A stretch of DNA of 64,000 bases. Source: Phyllosticta citribraziliensis. Taxonomy: Eukaryota. How positions within the stretch are numbered: position 1 is the stretch's first letter; each line of letters starts with the position of its first letter. The notes beneath the pieces were generated by a model. That model did not search any database. It saw nothing but the letters and a program-made list of their open reading frames with translations, and was not told the DNA's origin. A program made the translations under genes and the position numbers. The stretch lies in contig NW_027117351.1 in assembly GCF_038025025.1 (NCBI RefSeq), positions 372,001 through 436,000 of the forward strand, read 5' to 3'. This document shows positions 2,125-63,379 of the stretch, one piece after another.

Positions 2125-2350
2125 CACGCGCTCGAATCCTCCTTGACAGACGTCGCACGCTCTCTTGAATCCTCCCCGTCACGCAGCGCCCGAGTCCTTG
2201 AAGCATCCGAGCCTAGCAGTACCACGCAGATTCACGAAGCCTCCCTCTTTGTTGACGTGTAAGTTCACGACAGCTCCCTGATCGGTAGCGCGAGAGTTGA
2301 CGAATGCTCCTTGTCAGTTGCCGCTCAAGTCCACGAACGCTCCCTGCACG
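2125..2350 (+). repeat. Degenerate 33-bp-period tandem array (7 units) sharing the internal motif of the MITE family
   Basis: GAA-n-(G/C)C-TCC-like cores at 2134, 2167, 2200, 2236, 2269, 2302 and 2335 (spacing 33,33,36,33,33,33). Confidence 0.75.
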
Positions 2351-2357
2351 CGCGACC

Positions 2358-3157
2358 ATGGGTCTTTCCTGCGTGCTTGCTTGTGCTTCTGTCTTGATGT
2401 CTTGCTGGCGTAAGACCCAGGCCGGCGCAAGGGAAGATGGCCATGTGGTGAGGAACCAGGCACATGGTTCGCTGCGTAATGCGCCGGTGAAGTACAAGTA
2501 CAGAGACTGCCGCTCCCGTTTCTTGCGCCGCCAACCATCTCCCATCAAGACCGGCTCCTCAATGGCGGTCCTTGACCAAGATGTCAAGGTGGTGGACTTT
2601 GCCCCAGAGGTAATCAAGTCCTCCATGAATCTACACGGACAAAGCACACTGACACGAGACAGGATACTCAACTCAATCTCGCTCCCACCCCTCTTCACCT
2701 CCCAGCGGCAACCTTCCTCCGCACGACAGCGCTTGCTCGCCACTCACCATCCTCCCAAGTCGTTGCTGCAGCCAAGGAGCTCGAGTCGCGCGTCCTACTC
2801 CCCAACTACGACGCCGACAGCCTGATGATCGTCCGCCAGGTCGACATCAACCTCTGGAAGTTTGTCCGCTCCCACGCCGAGGCCCAATTCTGCAAGCTCG
2901 GCCACCGATTGTCGATGAGTGGCTCCGTCATCACCGCATTTGACGGACACGAGTACACAAGCGCTCAGCTAAGGGAGAGATGCGGCTTCCTGAAGGGCGA
3001 ATACGAGTGGAGGGAGAGCCAGTTGGCCAAGTTTCCGCCTGGTCCTGGCAAGGAGCATCGCTTGGTTGTCATGGCGAGCATCAAGCGGCAGTATGTCAGG
3101 TACCGCTCGGATTTCACGACGAGGTTCGGTTGGGATGTCGCTCCGCTGGAGCTTTGA
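2358..3157 (+). CDS. Hypothetical protein, 2 exons (start 2358 or 2562 to 2609; 2663-3157)
   Basis: A 53-nt intron at 2610-2662 (GTAATC...CTGAC...CAG) joins ...VVDFAPE in frame to DTQLNLAP...MIVRQVDINLWKF...WDVAPLEL*. Start codon uncertain. Confidence 0.55.
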
Positions 3158-11960: not shown

Positions 11961-12136
11961 CATAAAACGTGTCGAAGAACTTTGACCCCTCGGTCTAGCT
12001 GCAGTTATGAACAAAAGCTCCCTGAGCGCATGTGTGGTGGCGGACGACAGCTCCCTAGGCACAACTATAGCAGCGAACGAACGCTCCATCCGTGCAGCCG
12101 CAGTGCCAGGTCTCATTTCTTTCGACACCCACCGTA
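11961..12136 (+). mobile_element. MITE family copy A (left TIR eroded)
   Basis: Right end GGTCTCATTTCTTTCGACACCCACCGTA is nearly identical to copy E. Three 33-bp-spaced cores at 12013, 12046 and 12079. Confidence 0.75.
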
Positions 12137-16442: not shown

Positions 16443-17012
16443 AGAAGGGCCAGAGATCTCATGGATGATTTCCGGGATTTCAACAAGATATCGCAAAGAA
16501 GTAGCGTTCTAGCGCGGCCGACAGCCAACGCACCGTGGCCGTGGAGAGATCTGATGGTTCCTAGATCTAGCTGCAGTAGCAAATTCCTGACGATGGTGCA
16601 TGAAGCATCTAGGAGCGCTGATTCGATTTGTTGGCAAAGTGCAGACGTGATGAAAGCAGCTGGGTTTCGTCCATCGCATCGCAGCGCTCAAAGAGCGGCT
16701 TGGCCGCGGCTGTGAGTGGAGGGAAGAAGGGAGGATTCAAACGGCTCGTTGATTGTCCATGGCGAGACAATTGCAGTGGTGAGACAAAGGACGGGATGTG
16801 TCGATGAGGTGGTCGTCGCGCGGCGAGTCAGCACGGGCGTGGGGCAGCGCGTCATTTGCCGACGGCGGCGGGACCGTTTTCTTTTCTCTTCCCTGTCTGC
16901 TACACCTCTACTTTTCCCCAGACTTCTCCGTCCTCCACGGCATGGAAAGTGCGCTGAAGCAGTCCTACTCACCCTACTCCGACGACTCTCCCATTCTCTG
17001 CTACCAGTCTCC

Positions 17013-22662: not shown

Positions 22663-23588
22663 GTGCCAAGAATGGAAAAAGGCTTACTGCATTGGGTCAA
22701 GCGTAGGGCTGAGACGGACTCGCACATCACTGCCATTGACAAGATCCGAGCACATATTTTTATATTGCGTGGCAGCAGAAACCGAATTCTCTGGATTTGG
22801 CTGAGACGACGAATTCATAGATGCAACTGTGGCAATGGATGAAAGCTCCTCAAACGCGCAATTGTGCAAGCGGAAAATAGCCTCCTACGCCTCTCATGAT
22901 CGCTCTCCAGATGCAGCGGCGGTGCCAGCAGGTATGAATTCTTTCAACTCCTACAGTACTTTGCTTCACGTCCAATTCCCCCCATCTCCTCTTCGTCACC
23001 TTGTATTCCATCGGTACTCCTCTGCTCTCATCTCCCGGCCATCCCTGTTTCGCTATTGGCATCTTCGCTCCGCTACAGCGAGGTCTGCAGCGGAAGCATC
23101 TCAGCATCCGCACATCGTCCACGTCCCACTGCCGCAACTCACTTCAATCGCTGAAAAATTTGGCCCCCGTCAATTGGTTGCGACGTGTGTTGCATTCAAA
23201 GTAACAGACGGCCTAGCCTCTACCTCGACTCCTGCAAAAGTGGAGGAGAAGAGGACGTTCGAGCCGAATTTAGTTGCAGATGGCGTTGATCCGAATAGGG
23301 CCAAAGGTTTGCATTTCGAAGAACAACTCGTTGATGAGCACTTTTTTGACTCTCCAAGACAGCACTGCGTGGTCTCCATCACTCATCTTTTGCTGAAATG
23401 ACTTTTTTGCCTGCAATTGCGTATCGTTCGCCATATCACGTGCCTCGTCTGGACTTGATGAGTTGAACCGCCTGTCTTCGAGCGGCATAGGGATGTTTGG
23501 GTTGAGATGGGAACTGGTCGAATACAGAGGCAGTCTCATGCCAAGAATAGAGAAGAGCTTACTACATCGGGTCAAGCGTAGGGCTGAC
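22663..23588. repeat. Diverged direct repeat: 22663-22713 and 23538-23588 (43/51 identical), with weaker similarity extending ~100 nt downstream
   Basis: GTGCCAAGAATGGAAAAAGGCTTACTGCATTGGGTCAAGCGTAGGGCTGAG vs ATGCCAAGAATAGAGAAGAGCTTACTACATCGGGTCAAGCGTAGGGCTGAC. Confidence 0.85.
22766..22958 (+). mobile_element. MITE family copy B (degenerate), upstream of TAH18
   Basis: CTGGATTTGGCTGAGACGACGAA resembles CTGGGTCTGGCTGCGACAATGAA of copy E; internal ACTGTGGCA...GAAAGCTCC. Right end ATTCTTTCAACTCCTACAGTA resembles the family TIR TTTCTTTCGACACCCACCGT. Confidence 0.6.
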
Positions 23589-30022: not shown

Positions 30023-30203
30023 CAATGTGGGTGTCAAAAGACATGACAACTTCTGTCGTTACGGCTGGCCACAGGCAGTATTCATCTACGACGACGAAAC
30101 ATTTCAGTATCTGAGGAAACTGTCTTGCTCTGCCACAGCTGCATCTTGGGAGCATTTCTCACCACTGTAGACCTCGCGAGTCAATCTTTTGATACCCACT
30201 GTC
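30023..30203 (-). mobile_element. MITE family copy C (reverse orientation) in the VPS17/MEF2 divergent promoter
   Basis: Inverted arms GTGGGTGTCAAAAGACATGAC (30027-30047) and GTCAATCTTTTGATACCCAC (30180-30199). Reverse-complement cores at 30115 and 30148 are 33 apart. Length ~181 bp, like the other copies. Confidence 0.7.
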
Positions 30204-30289: not shown

Positions 30290-33147
30290 ATGTTGCGGCA
30301 GCTCTCGTGGCGAGCACATGGACAGCTGCAAAATGGCGTCGGCTTGCGCATGTTCAGCGCTTCAGCGCGTCGCTATTCATCCCAACCAAGCGCCACGCCT
30401 CTCGCAAAAACGAGGAATATTGGCATAATAGCCCACATTGATGCTGTAAAACAGCTGAACCCATTCTCGTGTATAATTCTGACTCTTTTAGGGCAAAACC
30501 ACCACCACAGAGCGTATGCTCTACTATAGTGGATTTACCCGGCGAATCGGAGGTAAACCCTTTCCTTGTCATCGCTTCTCCTATCTTTTTTTCAATTGTC
30601 AACATCTTCTTAAACTTACAGTTCTCTGACTGGTTGATTCAAGAGGTTGATGAGGGCTCCACGGTCACGGATTTCCTGCCCGCAGAAAGAGCTCGAGGAA
30701 TTACCATCCAATCGGCCGCCATTTCTTTCCATTGGCCACCACTGTTGGCGAACCAGAAACAGGACTCCGCCAATAATGGAACCATCTCTCTTCCGAGGTC
30801 CGCCACATCTCACAACATCAACTTAATCGACACCCCCGGTCACGCCGACTTCACCTTTGAGGTTTTACGATCTCTTCGCATCCTGGATGGCGCTGTTTGT
30901 ATTTTAGATGGCGTCGCCGGTGTTGAAGCACAGACCGAAAAAGTCTGGAAACAAGCAAACCAGTATCATATTCCCAGAATCATCTACGTCAACAAGCTGG
31001 ACCGCGATGGAGCTGCGTTTGAGCGCACAATCAAAGAGATTGGGACGCGATTGCATTCTTGGCCTGCCATTTGCCATATCCCCTGGTGGGAAGATGGAAC
31101 AGCCAAGTTCGTTGGCGTCGGTGATGCTGTACACTTGAGAGGTATGATGTGGGAAGAAGGCGGCGATGGCAGGACGATCAAGGTCCACAGCTTGGAGGAG
31201 CTCGAAACCTCCCACCCCAAGTTTGCCCAAGAAATCAAGACTGCAAGAGAGGCCCTGGTCGAACTCCTCAGCGAGCACGATGACGACATGATCGAGACCT
31301 TTTTCAGTTGCGATGAGGATCACTTGGCCATCCCAGCGGTGGATATCACCGAGTCACTGCGAAGATGCACCCTGAAACATCCGCAAAAGCTCGTACCCGT
31401 CTACGCTGGTGCAAGCTTTCGCAACATTGGTGTTCAGCCCTTGTTGGATGCGGTCGTCGACCTATTGCCTTCTCCAGAGGAACGGCCGGATGCAAGCATC
31501 AAAATGGGTACCCTGAAAGGCACGCTCAGTGAGCTTATTAGTGGCAAGATGGCTCTCGAAGCCGTCACCCCAGAAGCAGACGTCAAAAAGAAGAAGAAAG
31601 TAGCGGCCAAGGCAACTGGTACGGCTGTGTCGAAACTTGGAGCTTGTGCTCTCGCTTTCAAGGTCGTCAATGACAGCAAGCGTGGCATTCTCGTCTACGT
31701 TCGTGTCTACAGTGGCACTCTGACACGCAACACTGTACTTTTCAACACCAATCTAGGGGTATCCGAGCGAGCGCAGCGCTTGCTCAAGATGTACGCCAAT
31801 GATGCTGTAGATGTGGAAGAGATTCCTGCGGGCCAAATCGGTGTTATTCCTGGGCTCAAACTCGCTCGGACTGGAGATACACTCATAGCCTACAACACGG
31901 GAGCTAATCCCAAATATGGCCCACCAGAACCTTTCAACAGCCTGCAATTACGTCCCATCGCGGTGCCGCCTCCGGTCTTCTTTGTAAGCGTCGAGCCCAA
32001 CAGTCTGTCAGAGGAGAAGACTGTTGCCGAACACCTGAGTCTTCTTCTCCGCGAAGATCCCAGTCTCAACGTCAGTCTTGACGCAGAGAGTGGGCAGACT
32101 CAGCTTGCAGGCATGGGCGAGCTCCACTTGGAGATTGCCAGGGACCGTCTCATCAACGACCTCAAGGCCAAGGCGTCGACTGGTCGAATCATGATCGGCT
32201 ACCGCGAAGCCATCGTCAGCGACTCTTCTCCTTGCACTCAACTATTCGACCGTGAGATAGGGGGCAGACGAGCCCGCGCCGGCTGCACGGCGAGCGTCAG
32301 TCCCTTCAATCCATCCACCGCCACGCCATCTTCCGAGCACACAACGTCGATTCCCCTGGACAGCTCCAACGCGTTAACAATCCACCACCCAACGCTATAC
32401 AGCGACGGCGAATCCGTCGACGACGCACCCGCCCTCCCTGAAACGCTCCCCTTTCAAACCATCATTCACGCACTGCAGACGGGGACAGCGGCGGCCCTCG
32501 CCCGCGGACCCCAGCACCGCTTCCCCATGCACTCGACCGCCGTGACGCTCACGCTGGACCCCTCGACGCAGCTCACAAGCGATACAACGCCGGCCGCGCT
32601 TTCAGGCGCCGCGCGCCTCGCCGTCGTCGCCGCGCTCAAGGACGCCGCCACCAAAGCCGACACGGCCCTCATGGAGCCCGTTATGCACGTCACCATCGCC
32701 GTCAACGAATCCGACCTCGGCGTCGTCGTCCACGACATCAGCGCCGCCCGCGGTGGCCACGTCCTCTCACTCGACGCCGCCGACGCCGCCGACACTTCTT
32801 CTGCTTCTTCTCCGTCCACCCCTGACACCGCCGCTCTCGCCGCCGACGACGTCGAAGCCCTCGACCTGCCGCTCATCGACCCGGCGCGCATCTATGCGCC
32901 GCCAGACCCGTTCGGCTCGTCGTCGGCCAGCGCGCGCAACGCGGCCAACGAAGCCGCGCGCATGAGCGGCGACCGCCAGCGGCAGATCACGGCCCGCGTA
33001 CCGCTGCGCGAGATGGTCGGGTACTTGAAGCACCTGCGCAGCCTGACGGGCGGGCGCGGCACGTTTGTCATGGGCGTGGATCGGTTCGAGCGCGTGGCAG
33101 CGCAGAAGGTCAAGGGCATTTTGGCGGATATTAGTGGGGGTTTTTGA
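30290..33147 (+). CDS. MEF2: Mitochondrial ribosome-releasing factor 2 (EF-G2mt); introns 30446-30491, 30553-30643
   Basis: Presequence-like N-terminus, [74 protein letters not shown]. Confidence 0.93.
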
Positions 33148-47416: not shown

Positions 47417-48337
47417 GCTAGCGGTGCATGCGGAGGCCAGACAGGACAGAAGCGAAGGTCGAGGTGGGATGGAAGGAGAGGAGCGAGAGTTGGACGGCGA
47501 GTTGGGTGAAATTAGGCTGGGGGGCCGTGGAATAGGCTATCTTGGCAAAGAGGCAGGGGAGACGGCGATGATGAGGCAGTGCGTCGGCGCACCGTTACGC
47601 TACCTACGCGTGCGAGAAGGGGCGCAGATTATTGGCGAGCGGCGTGGTGGACGACGAGAGGAAATAAGGGCGAGAGGGAGAACGAGCGGAAGAGAGGTTG
47701 AACCAGCCACATTTCTCGTCGTCGTCGAGACGTGGACCATCGAGTACCGCGGGTCCCTTGATGGTGAGTTTCAGGGTCCCTGCCCCTGCCCTGCCACTTT
47801 TGCTCCGGCCGTCTCAGCAGCTATTTGCGTCCGTCCGTCTGCCCCGCCCAACCCAGCCCAGCTCAGCTCAAGCCGGGGGCCCTGTAGGGCTGCCGCTCCT
47901 CTCACTCTCTTCTAGGAGTACTCCATCGCTATCCATCTCCATCATCGTCGAATCGTCCATCGACCCCTCGCCGCCGTCTGCTGCTGCCTGCGACCACTGC
48001 CGGGGGCGCATTCTCGAAACCAAACACGAACACGCTTTTTCACTTTCACTGCCACGCCGCCAGATGTACCCAGGCTCCCCATCTCGCCCGAATGTTCCGC
48101 TTTTCTTTCGGCCATGAAAGCGCGGCGGTGTGACGTCAAACCCACGTCCGAAATTGCAAGTCCACAATGCATCACTGGTCTGTCTCTGTGCCACTGGTGA
48201 TGCACATCCACAGCGTTCCGTCAACCCGACTCTCCAGCCTTTGCGTGCCCCTATCATTGTATGTAGGTTTGGAAGAGAAACATGTACGCCGTCGGCGTTG
48301 GTGCGCTTGACCAAACTGCCTAAGCGCTTCTCACCAC

Positions 48338-48518
48338 CACGGTGGGCGTCGAAAGAAATGTGACTCCCTGGGTCTGGCTGCGACAATGAACGACTGCTTC
48401 CTAAGCGTGACTGTGGCAGCAAATGGACGCCCCTCTAGACGCAACCGCAGCAGCAGATGAATGCTCCCCAAGCGCACTCGCATTGCCCAAGGTCTCCTCT
48501 CTTTCGACACCCACCGTG
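48338..48518 (+). mobile_element. MITE family copy E, intact: 27-bp TIRs (23/27 match), CAC..GTG ends, 4-bp TSD CCAC
   Basis: Left arm CACGGTGGGCGTCGAAAGAAATGTGAC, right arm GTCTCCTCTCTTTCGACACCCACCGTG. CCAC at 48334-48337 and 48519-48522. Internal cores at 48392, 48425 and 48459. Confidence 0.85.
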
Positions 48519-48555
48519 CCACCAACCATCTTGGCATTCCCTTCAAGGTGCGTGT

Positions 48556-48657
48556 CTGGATATGGCTGTAGTGGTGAATGACAGCACCTTGGCTTCGTCT
48601 GCTGTGGCGAAAGAGCCTGCGGAGCTAGGACATGTCATTTTCTTCGACGCCCACTAC
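48556..48657 (+). mobile_element. Partial second MITE copy adjacent to copy E
   Basis: CTGGATATGGCTGTAG...GAATGACAGC matches the start of the element interior. It ends in the TIR-like GTCATTTTCTTCGACGCCCACT. Confidence 0.55.
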
Positions 48658-49374
48658 GCTGTGAACTTGGTACCTTTCCCGCTTCACCAAGCCCGTAGAT
48701 GTAAAGCTGTAGGTCCATCCACTGGGATCCAGATTCATGATTGGCTTGATGCCTCGTTGAAGAGCTAGGAAGTACGGGTCATTCCGATCGAGGCTGGAAT
48801 AGGTATCAATTTCTGTCATGATTGATGTCAGTTTTCCCAGGGGCAGACCCAGACATGCAAACTTCGCATCAAATCCAAGTTCGGTAGAGGTCGAAATCCT
48901 TTGCCTGGCTGTCCTCTCCTAGCTGTGCTGTGCCTGTTGGATAGCAGGTGGGAATCGTAAGAGCATGGGAGACTTTGGGCTTGTTACTCGGGATCGTCCT
49001 TGGTGGCACGCTGCTTCCCCTTTGGCAAAACTCCAACCACGGGAGGATATTGTCATTGGTGGCACATGAGAGGTGCTTCATCTGGCCGCCAATTGAAGCA
49101 GGCTGCTCCGCCGAGTCCTGCTTATGTCGTTGAGCGGCGTGGTGTTGCCCTGAAAATTTTCTGCTCCTCGGTCACGTCTGCTCACCTCCAACCCCATCCC
49201 CACCCCCATCCGCACCCAACACCGCCTGTCGCTCCTCCTCCCTCCCGTCCACGCTAACAGGCACGGACCATCAACACCACGGTATCCGGCCGCCCACGTC
49301 TGCTGTAAGTCTTCTCCTCTGCCGCAACCCTTTGTTCCATTGCCACTGCCACGATCTGCTTGACTACGCCCAAC

Positions 49375-52195
49375 ATGGCCTCCGTCAGGACTAAAACTGA
49401 CACGGGAGTAGAGGACCTCGCGTCCTACTTCAAGCGCATCAACTTCGACCTCGATCTCTCACCCTCAGCTCGCAAGCCGTTGCCCAAGCTCAAGCCCGTC
49501 ACAGCGAATACATCTCGCAAGGCCATCTCGGCCGCGTCGTCCAAGCCGCGAAAGGCCAGCTCGGTCGCACCGTCCGAAGCTTCTCAGGGCTTCGTCAAGT
49601 ACACCTACCATTCGTCCAGGCGTCTTTCTCCCAGCGCGAGCTCATTCGTTCCGTCAAGACCCATCAAGGGAGCTCAATCGCCGGCCGACCCGTTTCAGGA
49701 CTCGAGCCCTGTGGATCCAACCCAAGGTAAGCTTCAGCCTTCCTTCGTCAATGGTCACCGCAAACCTCTACCAATTCCGTCCCAAACCCCCGTCTCGACG
49801 ACATTCGGCTGATAATCACAATGATTCCAAAGCTAACGCCAGCTCAGGCAACACCCCGGTCGACCCGCGTTACGAGGCCTTGGGCGAACAAGAAAAACGT
49901 CTCTTGGCCATCTTGAAGTCTCCCCGAGGAAGCCAACAACCTTTCCAGCTCATCCAAAACGAATCTCCGACAAGAACGCCTCCCGTTGTTTCCCACGACA
50001 GCGAAACTTCTCCCTGTAGCGTCTGTCCATACGATACAGCAACTTGCCCTTGCCCCTTGCAATACGCTCAATTCGGCATTGAGGAATTTGCTGTGGAGAG
50101 TGATTTGACATCCCGTCACGTCACACCGGAGTTCGAGGTCCCAGGCTCAATCGACCTGTCCAAGTCCCCGAGCTACACCTTGCCAATTTCGGCTCTTCCC
50201 CACACGTTGCGATCAAGTTCGATCGACGCAACAATGCCTCCACTCGGCAACTTGTTCGGCTTGGGCAACAGCCGTTATGCTCCTAGTCGCCCGAGTTCCC
50301 TATACAATCCTCTCAATCCTGTCTCTGCGGACCGCACTCCTCCGGTTCCTCTCGCCAATGAAGAGGACTTGCAGCAGCAGAGTGCCCTGCAAGCCGATCT
50401 TCAACGCCAAGCTCAGCTCAAGCGCGAGGCCGAGCAAGCCGCGGAGGTTCGCTTGATAAGGGAGCAGGAAGAGCGTGAGCGCCAGCGTCTCGCCAAATTC
50501 AAGGCGGACAAGGAGGAGATGGAGTGGCGCTTGGCCGAGGCCAGGCGCGCTGCTCAGTTCAAAAGAGAGCAGGAAGAGCGTGAGCGTCAGCGCCTTGCCA
50601 AAATCCAAGCTGAAAAGGTGGAGGCGGAGCGTCGTGAGCGCGAAGAAAGGGCCAGGCGTGCTGCCCAGCTCAAAAGGGAGGAAGAAGAGCGTGAGCGCCA
50701 GCGTCTCGCCAAGCTCAAGGCAGAGAAAGAGGAGGCGGAGCGCCGTGAGCGCGAAGAAAGGGCCAGGCGAGCTGCGCAGCTCAAGAGGGAGCAAGAAGAG
50801 CGTGAGCGTGAGCGTCTCGCCAAGCTCAAAGCAGAGAAAGAAGAGGCCGAGCTTCGCGAGCGCTTCAGGCGCCAGGAGGAAGCCAAGCGTGCTCAGCTGA
50901 AAAGACAGCAAGAGGAGCGCGAGCGCCTGGCGAAGATTCAGGCCGAAAAGGAAGAGGCCGAGCGCAAGGAGCGTGAACGTCAGCTGCTCTTGCAGGCGCA
51001 GCGCATCGATGCTATCGGCCAGATTGAAGCCTACGTCAAGGACAGCAGCATGAAGTACGGCATCCTCATGAAGCAGACTGACGACGAGATTGACCAGCAA
51101 GCCTCGGACCTTGAGAGCTTCAACGACAAGATCGCCGCCAAGAAGACTGAGTATGCCAAAATTGAGCAACAGCTCAAGAACTTGGGCGTAGAGCTTCAAG
51201 GTATGGCCGCTGCGAAGGTGGGAATGGACAAGGACCTTCGTCAGCTTGTGGACAACAAGACCGAGTTGCTGTCAGCGGCTCAGAAGGTTCGAAATGAAGC
51301 TGCCGAAAAGACGAAGACGCTCAAGGAAAAATCTCTTTCCTCCAACGAGGTCGCCAAGATTCTTGAATTCATCAAGCCAGAATTCGAGGTAAGTAGTGAT
51401 TGCTTTCGGATGAATGATCCCTACTGACTGACTGCCCAGACTCCTGAAGTCGAGCTTTCCAGGCTGTCTCTCAGCGACAAGCCCGAGTGCAGTGATGACG
51501 ATAGCGAATCCTCTGGCAACGAAGATGGCTTCGTCGACTTGGGTGCCACGCCTGCTCCGGCCTACTGGAAGCTTGACGACACTGGTGTCGAGGCCGACCG
51601 TGTGGTCAAGCTGGTCAATCTCCCGACCAACATCACGGTAGTCACCATCCAGGCTCTCGTCTGGGGTGGTCCACTGGACCGCATCGTCTACACGCCTGGC
51701 GAGAGCACTGCTGAGATTCACTTTCTGATCGGCCAGGACTGCCAAAAGTACTACAAAGCTACGGCCAATCACATTCCGTTCCCTGGCAACGAGGAGCGCC
51801 TCGTCAGAGTCGAGAAGTGTCCTCCCAGCCCCCGCCACCCATTCCTCCGCTACGCCTGGGAGGAGAAGCTTACCCGCTACGTTCTTGCCACTGGCATCCC
51901 CGAGGGCTGGACCAAGGCCGAGTTGAAGAAGTTTGCCGGCTCCCACAACAGAGAGGTCGAGCAAGTCCTCTTTGGCAAGGATTCCAGTGGTGTAAGTCGA
52001 GGGAACATCCAACCGCTGAATTAAAAGCTAACCGCATCCCAGAAACGCCTGTGTGAATTCCGCTTCCTCAACATCTTCCACGCCAACGCTTTCAAGTTTC
52101 TGATGAAGCGCGACATTGACTTTTACAAGGTCAAGACGGAGTACAGCAAGGACCAGTGCGCCGTCCACCGCGGCGTCCACACGCAGCCGCGCTGA
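49375..52195 (+). CDS. Large protein with Ser/Pro-rich N-terminus, E/R/K tandem-repeat helix, coiled coil and C-terminal degenerate RRM pair; exons 49375-49726, 49848-51388, 51440-51991, 52043-52195
   Basis: Three canonical GTAAG..CT(A/G)AC..CAG introns join four ORFs in frame. RVVKLVNLP....V.GG.L...AEIHF....C..YY and CEFRF.NI..A.......Y.KD.C resemble fungal Nrd1/Mrn1-type RRMs. Confidence 0.8.
50460..50985 (+). repeat. Coding tandem repeat, ~5 units of 105-117 nt (35-39 aa)
   Basis: Unit approximates REQEERERQRLAKLKAEKEEAERREREERARRAAQLK. Confidence 0.9.
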
Positions 52196-62904: not shown

Positions 62905-63194
62905 GGGGGGGGGGAAGGAGTTTGGAGAGGGCGTCCGACTGCTTGGTCCTTATACCCGTAGACGGAACGCTTGTATTGCTAGACAACGTCACAGCTTGAC
63001 TATGCACAGTGCCCCGAAACTCGCGTGGATCAGATTGCGTGAGTGTGGATTACATGAGTTGATTCAGCAGATCACGGCAAGAGTTATGGCATGGAAAGAT
63101 GGAGAATGAGCCCCTTCTTGATACAATCAGTCGACCCGATATCGAGACGCCCTATCCCAATCCCAACCACTCCCACCCACCCAGCCACCGAGGC

Positions 63195-63367
63195 CACAGT
63201 GGGAATCGGGAAAATCCCGGATCTGGCTGTAGCAATGAACGACTGCTTCTTAAGCGTGGCCACAGCGGTGTATGAATGCTCCCTAAATATAGCTATAGCA
63301 GTGCATGAATGCTCCCTAGACGCACTCATACTACTGCCAGGCCTCATTTCTTCCGACTCCCACTGTG
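63195..63367 (+). mobile_element. MITE family copy G, intact: CACAGTG..CACTGTG ends, 4-bp TSD AGGC
   Basis: Left arm CACAGTGGGAATCGGGAAAAT, right arm ATTTCTTCCGACTCCCACTGTG. AGGC at 63191-63194 and 63368-63371. Cores at 63241, 63274 and 63307. Confidence 0.85.
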
Positions 63368-63379
63368 AGGCCGTCACCG

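Follow-up and report, generated by a model that had tools for sequence, protein, structure and literature searches.

The 64-kb stretch of DNA analysed here, called the window below, is gene-rich and carries between its genes the copies of a short MITE, the best preserved of which lies at 48338-48518 (Table 1). All copies are intergenic in the window, and several are located just upstream of genes, namely those of MRP-L46 and of the MEF2/RRF2-like protein, or in the divergent region that separates the CAP59-type mannosyltransferase gene at 45.7-47.5 kb from a coiled-coil protein gene. The protein encoded by the MEF2/RRF2-like ORF (30442-33147) shares 67-70% identity with those of other Botryosphaeriales and 88% with those of Phyllosticta citriasiana and P. 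capitalensis. This 88% identity places the host among the Dothideomycetes, near Phyllosticta, in agreement with the ascomycete origin supposed in the earlier note. No transposase domain is present in the 23 long ORFs of the window that were scanned against Pfam. The ORF adjoining the main copy (49412-51427), which has no Pfam match, encodes tandem units (RERQRLAK.KAEKEEAERRE) in a long, charged, coiled-coil-like array, apparent at the DNA level as repeats of ~105 bp, 69-76% identical, at 50422-50977.

Table 1. Copies of the MITE family in the window and parts of the best-preserved copy.
Feature	Position	Strand	Evidence
Best-preserved MITE copy, 181 bp, CAC...GTG ends	48338..48518	+	nhmmer E 4e-54; contig breakpoints in related organism
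Left terminal inverted repeat, 27 nt	48338..48364	+	85% complementary to 48492-48518
Right terminal inverted repeat, 27 nt	48492..48518	+	pairs with 48338-48364
Left CCAC of 4-bp flanking duplication	48334..48337	.	read from sequence; flank tabulation
Right CCAC of 4-bp flanking duplication	48519..48522	.	read from sequence; flank tabulation
Internal region, some three tandem subrepeats of ~35 bp each, core ATGAAYG...GCTCCCTA	48376..48480 (approximate limits)	+	
Second complete copy, 173 bp, both ends CACAGTG, AGGC at 63191-63194 and 63368-63371	63195..63367	+	nhmmer E 2e-50
Third copy, 176 bp; decayed left end (CATAAAACG), right end ...CCCACCGTA; no clean duplication	11961..12136	+	nhmmer E 1e-50
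Decayed copy, 193 bp, duplication gone	22766..22958 (profile match from 22762)	+	nhmmer E 6e-12
Decayed copy, 181 bp, ~240 bp upstream of MEF2/RRF2-like ORF, duplication gone	30023..30203 (profile: 30202)	-	nhmmer E 1e-8
Copy without left end, 22 bp downstream of main copy	48541..48658	+	nhmmer 48541-48621 E 2e-3; right end 19/24 to end consensus; inverted-repeat pair
Internal fragment of copy	2247..2371	+	nhmmer E 3e-6, profile positions 53-137
Weak candidate for a solitary left end	16531..16598	+	nhmmer E 3e-3; 17/24 to end consensus

The main copy consists of the letters CACGGTGGGCGTCGAAAG...CTTTCGACACCCACCGTG and reads in its context ...tcaCCAC/CACGGTGGG...CCCACCGTG/CCACcaa, the slashes marking its borders. 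The 181-bp segment, its 27-bp terminal inverted repeats with 23 of 27 positions paired and the CCAC on both sides, as described in the earlier note, are all reproduced from the sequence and by inverted-repeat pairing. Across the family the inverted repeats measure 18-27 nt, with the consensus CACAGTGGGYGTCGAAAGAAA. The interior is built of subrepeats, whose core occurs at element positions 49 and 120 in the 48338 copy and 41, 78 and 111 in the 63195 copy; with a custom script, the halves of the consensus align with a score of 38, whereas 500 shuffles reach 27 at most. The script thus detects subrepeats that direct-repeat detection on single copies did not. The element is non-coding, with stops in most frames and a longest possible peptide of ~60 aa.

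A search of the 64-kb window with an nhmmer profile made from three copies (48338, 63195 and 11961) returns five near-full-length copies and three fragments. These eight correspond to about one per 8 kb, within the range of one copy or remnant per 7-10 kb given before. The profile recovers the previously listed copies at 11961-12136, 22766-22958, 30023-30203 (reverse) and 63195-63367. A further one, listed at 48556-48657, is indeed a homologous copy on the forward strand, but its extent is 48541-48658 and its left end is absent; the fragments at 2247-2371 and, weakly, 16531-16598 are additions to that list. BLAST against the window gives two further full-length relatives of the 48338 element at ~70% identity. 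The ends are likewise enriched: an 18-nt end motif has four matches with up to three mismatches in the window, versus 0.12 expected, and at 11 sites at least 16 positions agree with the 24-nt end consensus, versus 0-4 such sites in 20 shuffles. Self-comparison of the whole window shows this MITE family to be its sole dispersed repeat family.

Copies are also found in two public sequencing runs, X1, which contains pieces identical to the window, and X3, whose contigs are ~90% like the window and come from a related organism. Position 48383, inside the element, is overlapped by 39 X3 contigs and nine X1 contigs, and the summed X3 depth is 774 in the bin of the element versus about 200 in neighbouring bins. 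X3 contigs holding other copies, with flanks unlike the window and unlike each other, start at 48337 (six contigs) or 48338 (eight contigs), and the match to the window ends at 48518 in five X3 contigs with discordant flanks. When the copies are aligned with their flanks, similarity between them ends at CAC on the left and at GTG on the right. The contig pile-up and breakpoints therefore show that the family is multi-copy in at least two organisms and that its termini are CAC and GTG, an independent confirmation of the ends first read by the earlier note. One X3 contig, in which 25 letters of the right end and the CCACCA flank are joined to the downstream gene (a side of fewer than 30 letters), weakly suggests that the 48338 insertion is older than the split from the X3 relative. 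An empty site was also looked for in the sequencing contigs: among the 15 of 54 joints listed, none removes exactly the element and one duplication.

Perfect 4-bp repeats flank two of the five copies having both ends, CCAC at 48338 and AGGC at 63195, and the remaining three have mutated ends without a clean repeat. For both intact copies, 4 bp is the only perfect length among the 2-10 bp tested, so that the length previously assigned to the two repeats holds, as does the presence of AGGC on both sides of 63195-63367. An exact 4-bp match at the spacing of the element occurs by chance at 0.58-0.69% of window positions and, by arithmetic from this background rate, two or more perfect 4-bp repeats among five copies have a probability of ~5e-4. 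Among the decayed copies, the 11961 flanks match at one of four positions (GCTC/GTCT) but at four of five when taken one base longer (GGCTC/GTCTC); the flanks of the other two are ATAT/CTTT and CCAA/GGCA. A perfect 5-bp repeat is present at none of the five copies, the 11961 flanks being the best. Nor do any of the five carry TA on both sides outside their ends, the feature that the earlier note had named as pointing to a Tc1/mariner MITE.

The ends of mimp elements (Fusarium, Tc1/mariner) contain CAGTGGG, and the ends of the present family contain the same motif from their third base. Mimp and impala elements also resemble it in size class and in intergenic, often promoter-proximal positions. 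They differ from it in that the element here is two bases longer (CA...TG) in copies with unrelated flanks and has a 4-bp duplication instead of TA. A Tc1/mariner (mimp/impala-like) assignment was rejected on these grounds, as the flanks are not TA and the CA/TG bases belong to the repeat.

We considered whether the family might be no transposon at all, but a hairpin-forming repeat that was dispersed by some other means, beside which the 4-bp repeats would have arisen by chance. The duplications are only two, every copy is intergenic, and the element as single-stranded DNA is predicted to form a long hairpin via its ends (-33.4 kcal/mol), folding slightly better than its shuffles (z -2.5), all of which would agree with such a repeat. 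Two perfect 4-bp repeats at independently defined ends, with the probability given above, argue against it, as do the classic MITE build (inverted ends, sharp edges, many copies with unrelated flanks) and the absence of any Rfam family match for the element, and we regard this explanation as highly improbable. The 48338 family is an old, decayed, non-coding MITE family, because it combines a non-coding sequence, subrepeats and a hairpin with an identity of 53-70% between pairs of copies, intergenic positions and no transposase domain in the scanned ORFs. We infer that it spread by cut-and-paste and that it is now inactive.

The mutation pattern of the copies is dominated by transitions. The pairs formed by the 48338, 63195 and 11961 copies differ by 41-45 transitions versus 6-20 transversions, the two best copies by 45 versus 6. 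Among 74 polarised differences, GC-to-AT changes (34) are modestly above AT-to-GC changes (26), and CpA and CpG contexts are both represented, without a clear bias for either. RIP may have contributed to the divergence, although elements of this family fall below the length generally held to set it off. The MITEs of Zymoseptoria tritici, as described in the excerpted text of PMC4522978, are similar in being shorter than 200 bp, in lying in gene-rich regions and in showing elevated transitions and no clear CpA bias. They differ in their duplications: among the 12 families (of 13) with a stated length, nine have 2 bp, two 5-6 bp and one 8-9 bp, and none has 4 bp (PMC4522978, same excerpt).

As to its origin, we propose that the MITE family derives from a cut-and-paste transposon, and that this parent most likely belonged to the CACTA/Mirage/Chapaev(/Transib) clade and would be Chapaev-like in its 4-bp duplication, a reading to which we give a probability of about 0.55. 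The Chapaev duplication is 4 bp long, and transposases of the CMC/Transib clade are DDE enzymes carrying C(2)C and H(3-4)H motifs, those of CMC being of the Transposase_21 type. Under this proposal, a DDE transposase whose gene lies at another place in the genome would bind the inverted ends, and perhaps the subrepeats too; acting in trans, it would cut at the CAC/GTG termini, and the element would insert at a 4-bp staggered cut whose repair would leave the 4-bp duplication. In the published descriptions, EnSpm, Mirage, Chapaev, Transib and their relatives (CMCT clade) have common 5'-CA..TG-3' termini and 2-5-bp TSDs (PMC12730594, excerpted text), CMC ends are invariably CAC/GTG (PMC6004678, excerpted text), and TSDs measure 2-4 bp in CMC and 5 bp in canonical Transib, with 3 bp or TA in some Transib relatives (bioRxiv 10.64898/2026.08.26.747230, excerpted text). 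For the 4 bp of Chapaev, the published support consists of the ranges, 2-4 bp for CMC and 2-5 bp for CMCT. The present family has 5'-CAC...GTG-3' termini and, in CCAC and AGGC (n=2), a duplication within the 2-4 bp of CMC. A CMC-clade parent, Chapaev-like in duplication length, is thus best supported because the CAC..GTG ends and the 4-bp duplication match the published descriptions of the clade. The putative link to Chapaev itself is drawn from just these two features, the end sequence and the duplication length.

Some observations weigh against the Chapaev-like reading. The duplication is kept in only two of five copies, the 11961 flanks match best at 5 bp, as a Transib-type duplication would, and six of the 14 X3 contig starts fall at 48337 instead of 48338, the latter two points bearing on the 4-bp length. 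When the family is compared with non-autonomous Chapaev/CMC elements, the CAC...GTG termini, the short (4-bp) non-TA duplication and the internal subrepeats are shared. Unlike them, it has ends starting with CACAG/CACGG, not CACTA, and is without a linked transposase; moreover, Repbase entries for fungal CMC come only from Basidiomycota and Mucorales according to the excerpted text of PMC5751038, whereas the host here is a Dothideomycete. In metagenomes, a 20-nt end pattern has no match. A 17-nt end pattern has at least 120 loci, and the 120 listed, each screened with the profile, were rejected as chance matches, their best E values being 0.044, 0.044 and 0.55; two of these loci (L032 and L010), aligned by eye, have only the searched motif in common with the element.

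Another superfamily making 4-bp duplications (Ginger, Sola, Academ or an undescribed lineage) may alternatively have provided the parent, the CAC..GTG ends being then coincidental. Duplications of 4 bp are made by Sola and Academ, and no transposase is linked to the element. Ginger ends start with TGT, and Sola termini likewise differ from CAC..GTG; Ginger1 itself was rejected, as the termini here are CAC...GTG and not of the TGT...ACA type. For Ginger1, the 4-bp length of its duplication alone agrees (PMC10045372, excerpted text). Abundance in fungi also speaks for such a parent, since Ginger is reported to be ubiquitous in fungi and Academ to occur in most fungal taxa, with CMC expanded mainly in Basidiomycota and Mucoromycotina (PMC5751038, excerpted text). 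The known termini speak against it: IS481EU, a lineage compared with Ginger, is described with TGT..ACA or TG..CA (PMC10045372, excerpted text), and CAC..GTG ends are a stated hallmark of CMC (PMC12730594 and PMC6004678, excerpted texts). All these points considered, we hold a parent from another superfamily to be possible, if distinctly less probable than one from the CMC clade.

PiggyBac and Kolobok were rejected separately, the duplications CCAC and AGGC not being the TTAA target; TTAA is the target of Kolobok. PiggyBac is described with 4-bp TSDs and CC..GG termini (PMC10045372, excerpted text).

The same letters can be read with a shorter duplication. Both intact repeats end in C, and therefore the usual 3-bp duplication of an EnSpm/CACTA-type MITE, CCA or AGG, followed by an element with one more base at its left end (CCAC...GTG), fits the intact flanks equally well. 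CAC..GTG ends are taken as EnSpm-like, and fungal EnSpm elements combine them with 3-bp TSDs (PMC12730594, excerpted text), and the X3 contig starts at 48337 agree with the additional base. The eight of 14 starts at 48338 oppose it, and a C at that place is expected in about a quarter of random flanks. Furthermore, the base beyond GTG is not G (it is C in one intact copy and A in the other), so that the ends would be asymmetric, and of the other copies one has C before CAC and another has A. An EnSpm/CACTA-type MITE with a 3-bp duplication is, in our view, very improbable. EnSpm/CACTA proper was rejected, as the ends are CACGG/CACAG instead of CACTA and as 3-bp flanks, taken with symmetric ends, match at one of three positions in both intact copies; the asymmetric reading just given keeps a small probability.

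The family consensus and both ends of the 63195 copy start with CACAGTG, which is the RSS heptamer of V(D)J recombination and differs by one base from the Transib end CACAATG (PMC1131882, excerpted text). This raises the question of a Transib-like MITE, with an RSS-type terminal heptamer and a parent lineage making duplications shorter than the canonical 5 bp. The 11961 flanks, with four of five positions matched at 5 bp, would fit a Transib-like origin, Transib relatives with 3-bp or TA duplications are known (bioRxiv 10.64898/2026.08.26.747230, excerpted text), and the two target sites here are GC-rich, as in Transib. The canonical Transib duplication of 5 bp (as defined in the excerpted text of PMC1131882) was nevertheless rejected, since it is perfect in none of the five copies; the duplication here is 4 bp. 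Inspection of the sequence gave no A-rich nonamer at Transib spacing and no recognisable heptamer-spacer-nonamer layout. The host range is a further point against it: Transib was reported in 2005 in no fungus except soybean rust (PMC1131882, excerpted text) and in 2017 in none of the fungal genomes of a survey (PMC5751038, excerpted text). We judge a Transib-like MITE of this kind to be very improbable. A broader and still doubtful idea is that the family comes from an undescribed Chapaev- or Transib-like lineage in Pezizomycotina, with RSS-type ends (CACAGTG...) and 4-bp duplications, which would once have produced thousands of MITE copies in Phyllosticta-like fungi.

Judged from the literature, the family is probably undescribed, and it is of a familiar kind. 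No work on Phyllosticta MITEs or DNA transposons was found in the literature, and six end motifs of 11-13 nt were also searched there: 71 papers contain one of them, and of the 20 listed none concerns transposons and none has either 13-mer. The earlier view that CAC-ended DNA transposons are not known from ascomycetes is too strong, since CACTA En/Spm elements have been annotated over 0.2% of the Zymoseptoria tritici genome (PMC4522978, excerpted text). Fungal CMC is wider than its Repbase entries, as found in the survey of PMC5751038 (excerpted text), and the excerpted text of an earlier survey places CACTA-like transposases in Rhizopus, Coprinopsis, Phanerochaete and Cryptococcus and names no ascomycete (PMC1636069).

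On present evidence, the element is what past transposition commonly leaves behind, an ordinary relic, and its interest is modest unless the parent is a Chapaev- or Transib-like transposase in Pezizomycotina. With such a parent, the clade from which RAG1 arose would be known from a wider range of hosts. If the undescribed Pezizomycotina lineage proves true, this RAG1-related clade would be extended to a group where surveys report Transib absent and CMC expansions mainly elsewhere. The practical use is nearer. Phyllosticta repeats are mostly unclassified, as are 87% of the interspersed ones in P. ampelicida (PMC12506662, excerpted text). Masking and the prediction of genes would therefore gain from a defined MITE family that recurs about every 8 kb in gene-rich DNA, and its copies could serve as markers when species of the genus, quarantine crop pathogens among them, are compared. 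The copies lie mostly between genes and several just upstream of them, so promoter sequence may have come from them.

Minor observations concern single copies. Position 48383 is A in the 48338 copy and G in 39 X3, nine X1 and one X2 contigs, and A is therefore a private change of this copy. A small cluster surrounds the same copy: besides the truncated copy that follows it downstream, an 11-nt stretch upstream (48316-48326, CTGCCTAAGCG) resembles the internal core motif of the element. This cluster, spanning 48316-48658, suggests repeated insertion at or beside older copies. Finally, the decayed copy at 22766-22958 is bracketed by a 49-bp direct repeat, 88% identical and 875 bp apart (22664-22712 and 23539-23587), which may belong to a further small family of repeats or have arisen by duplication in place.
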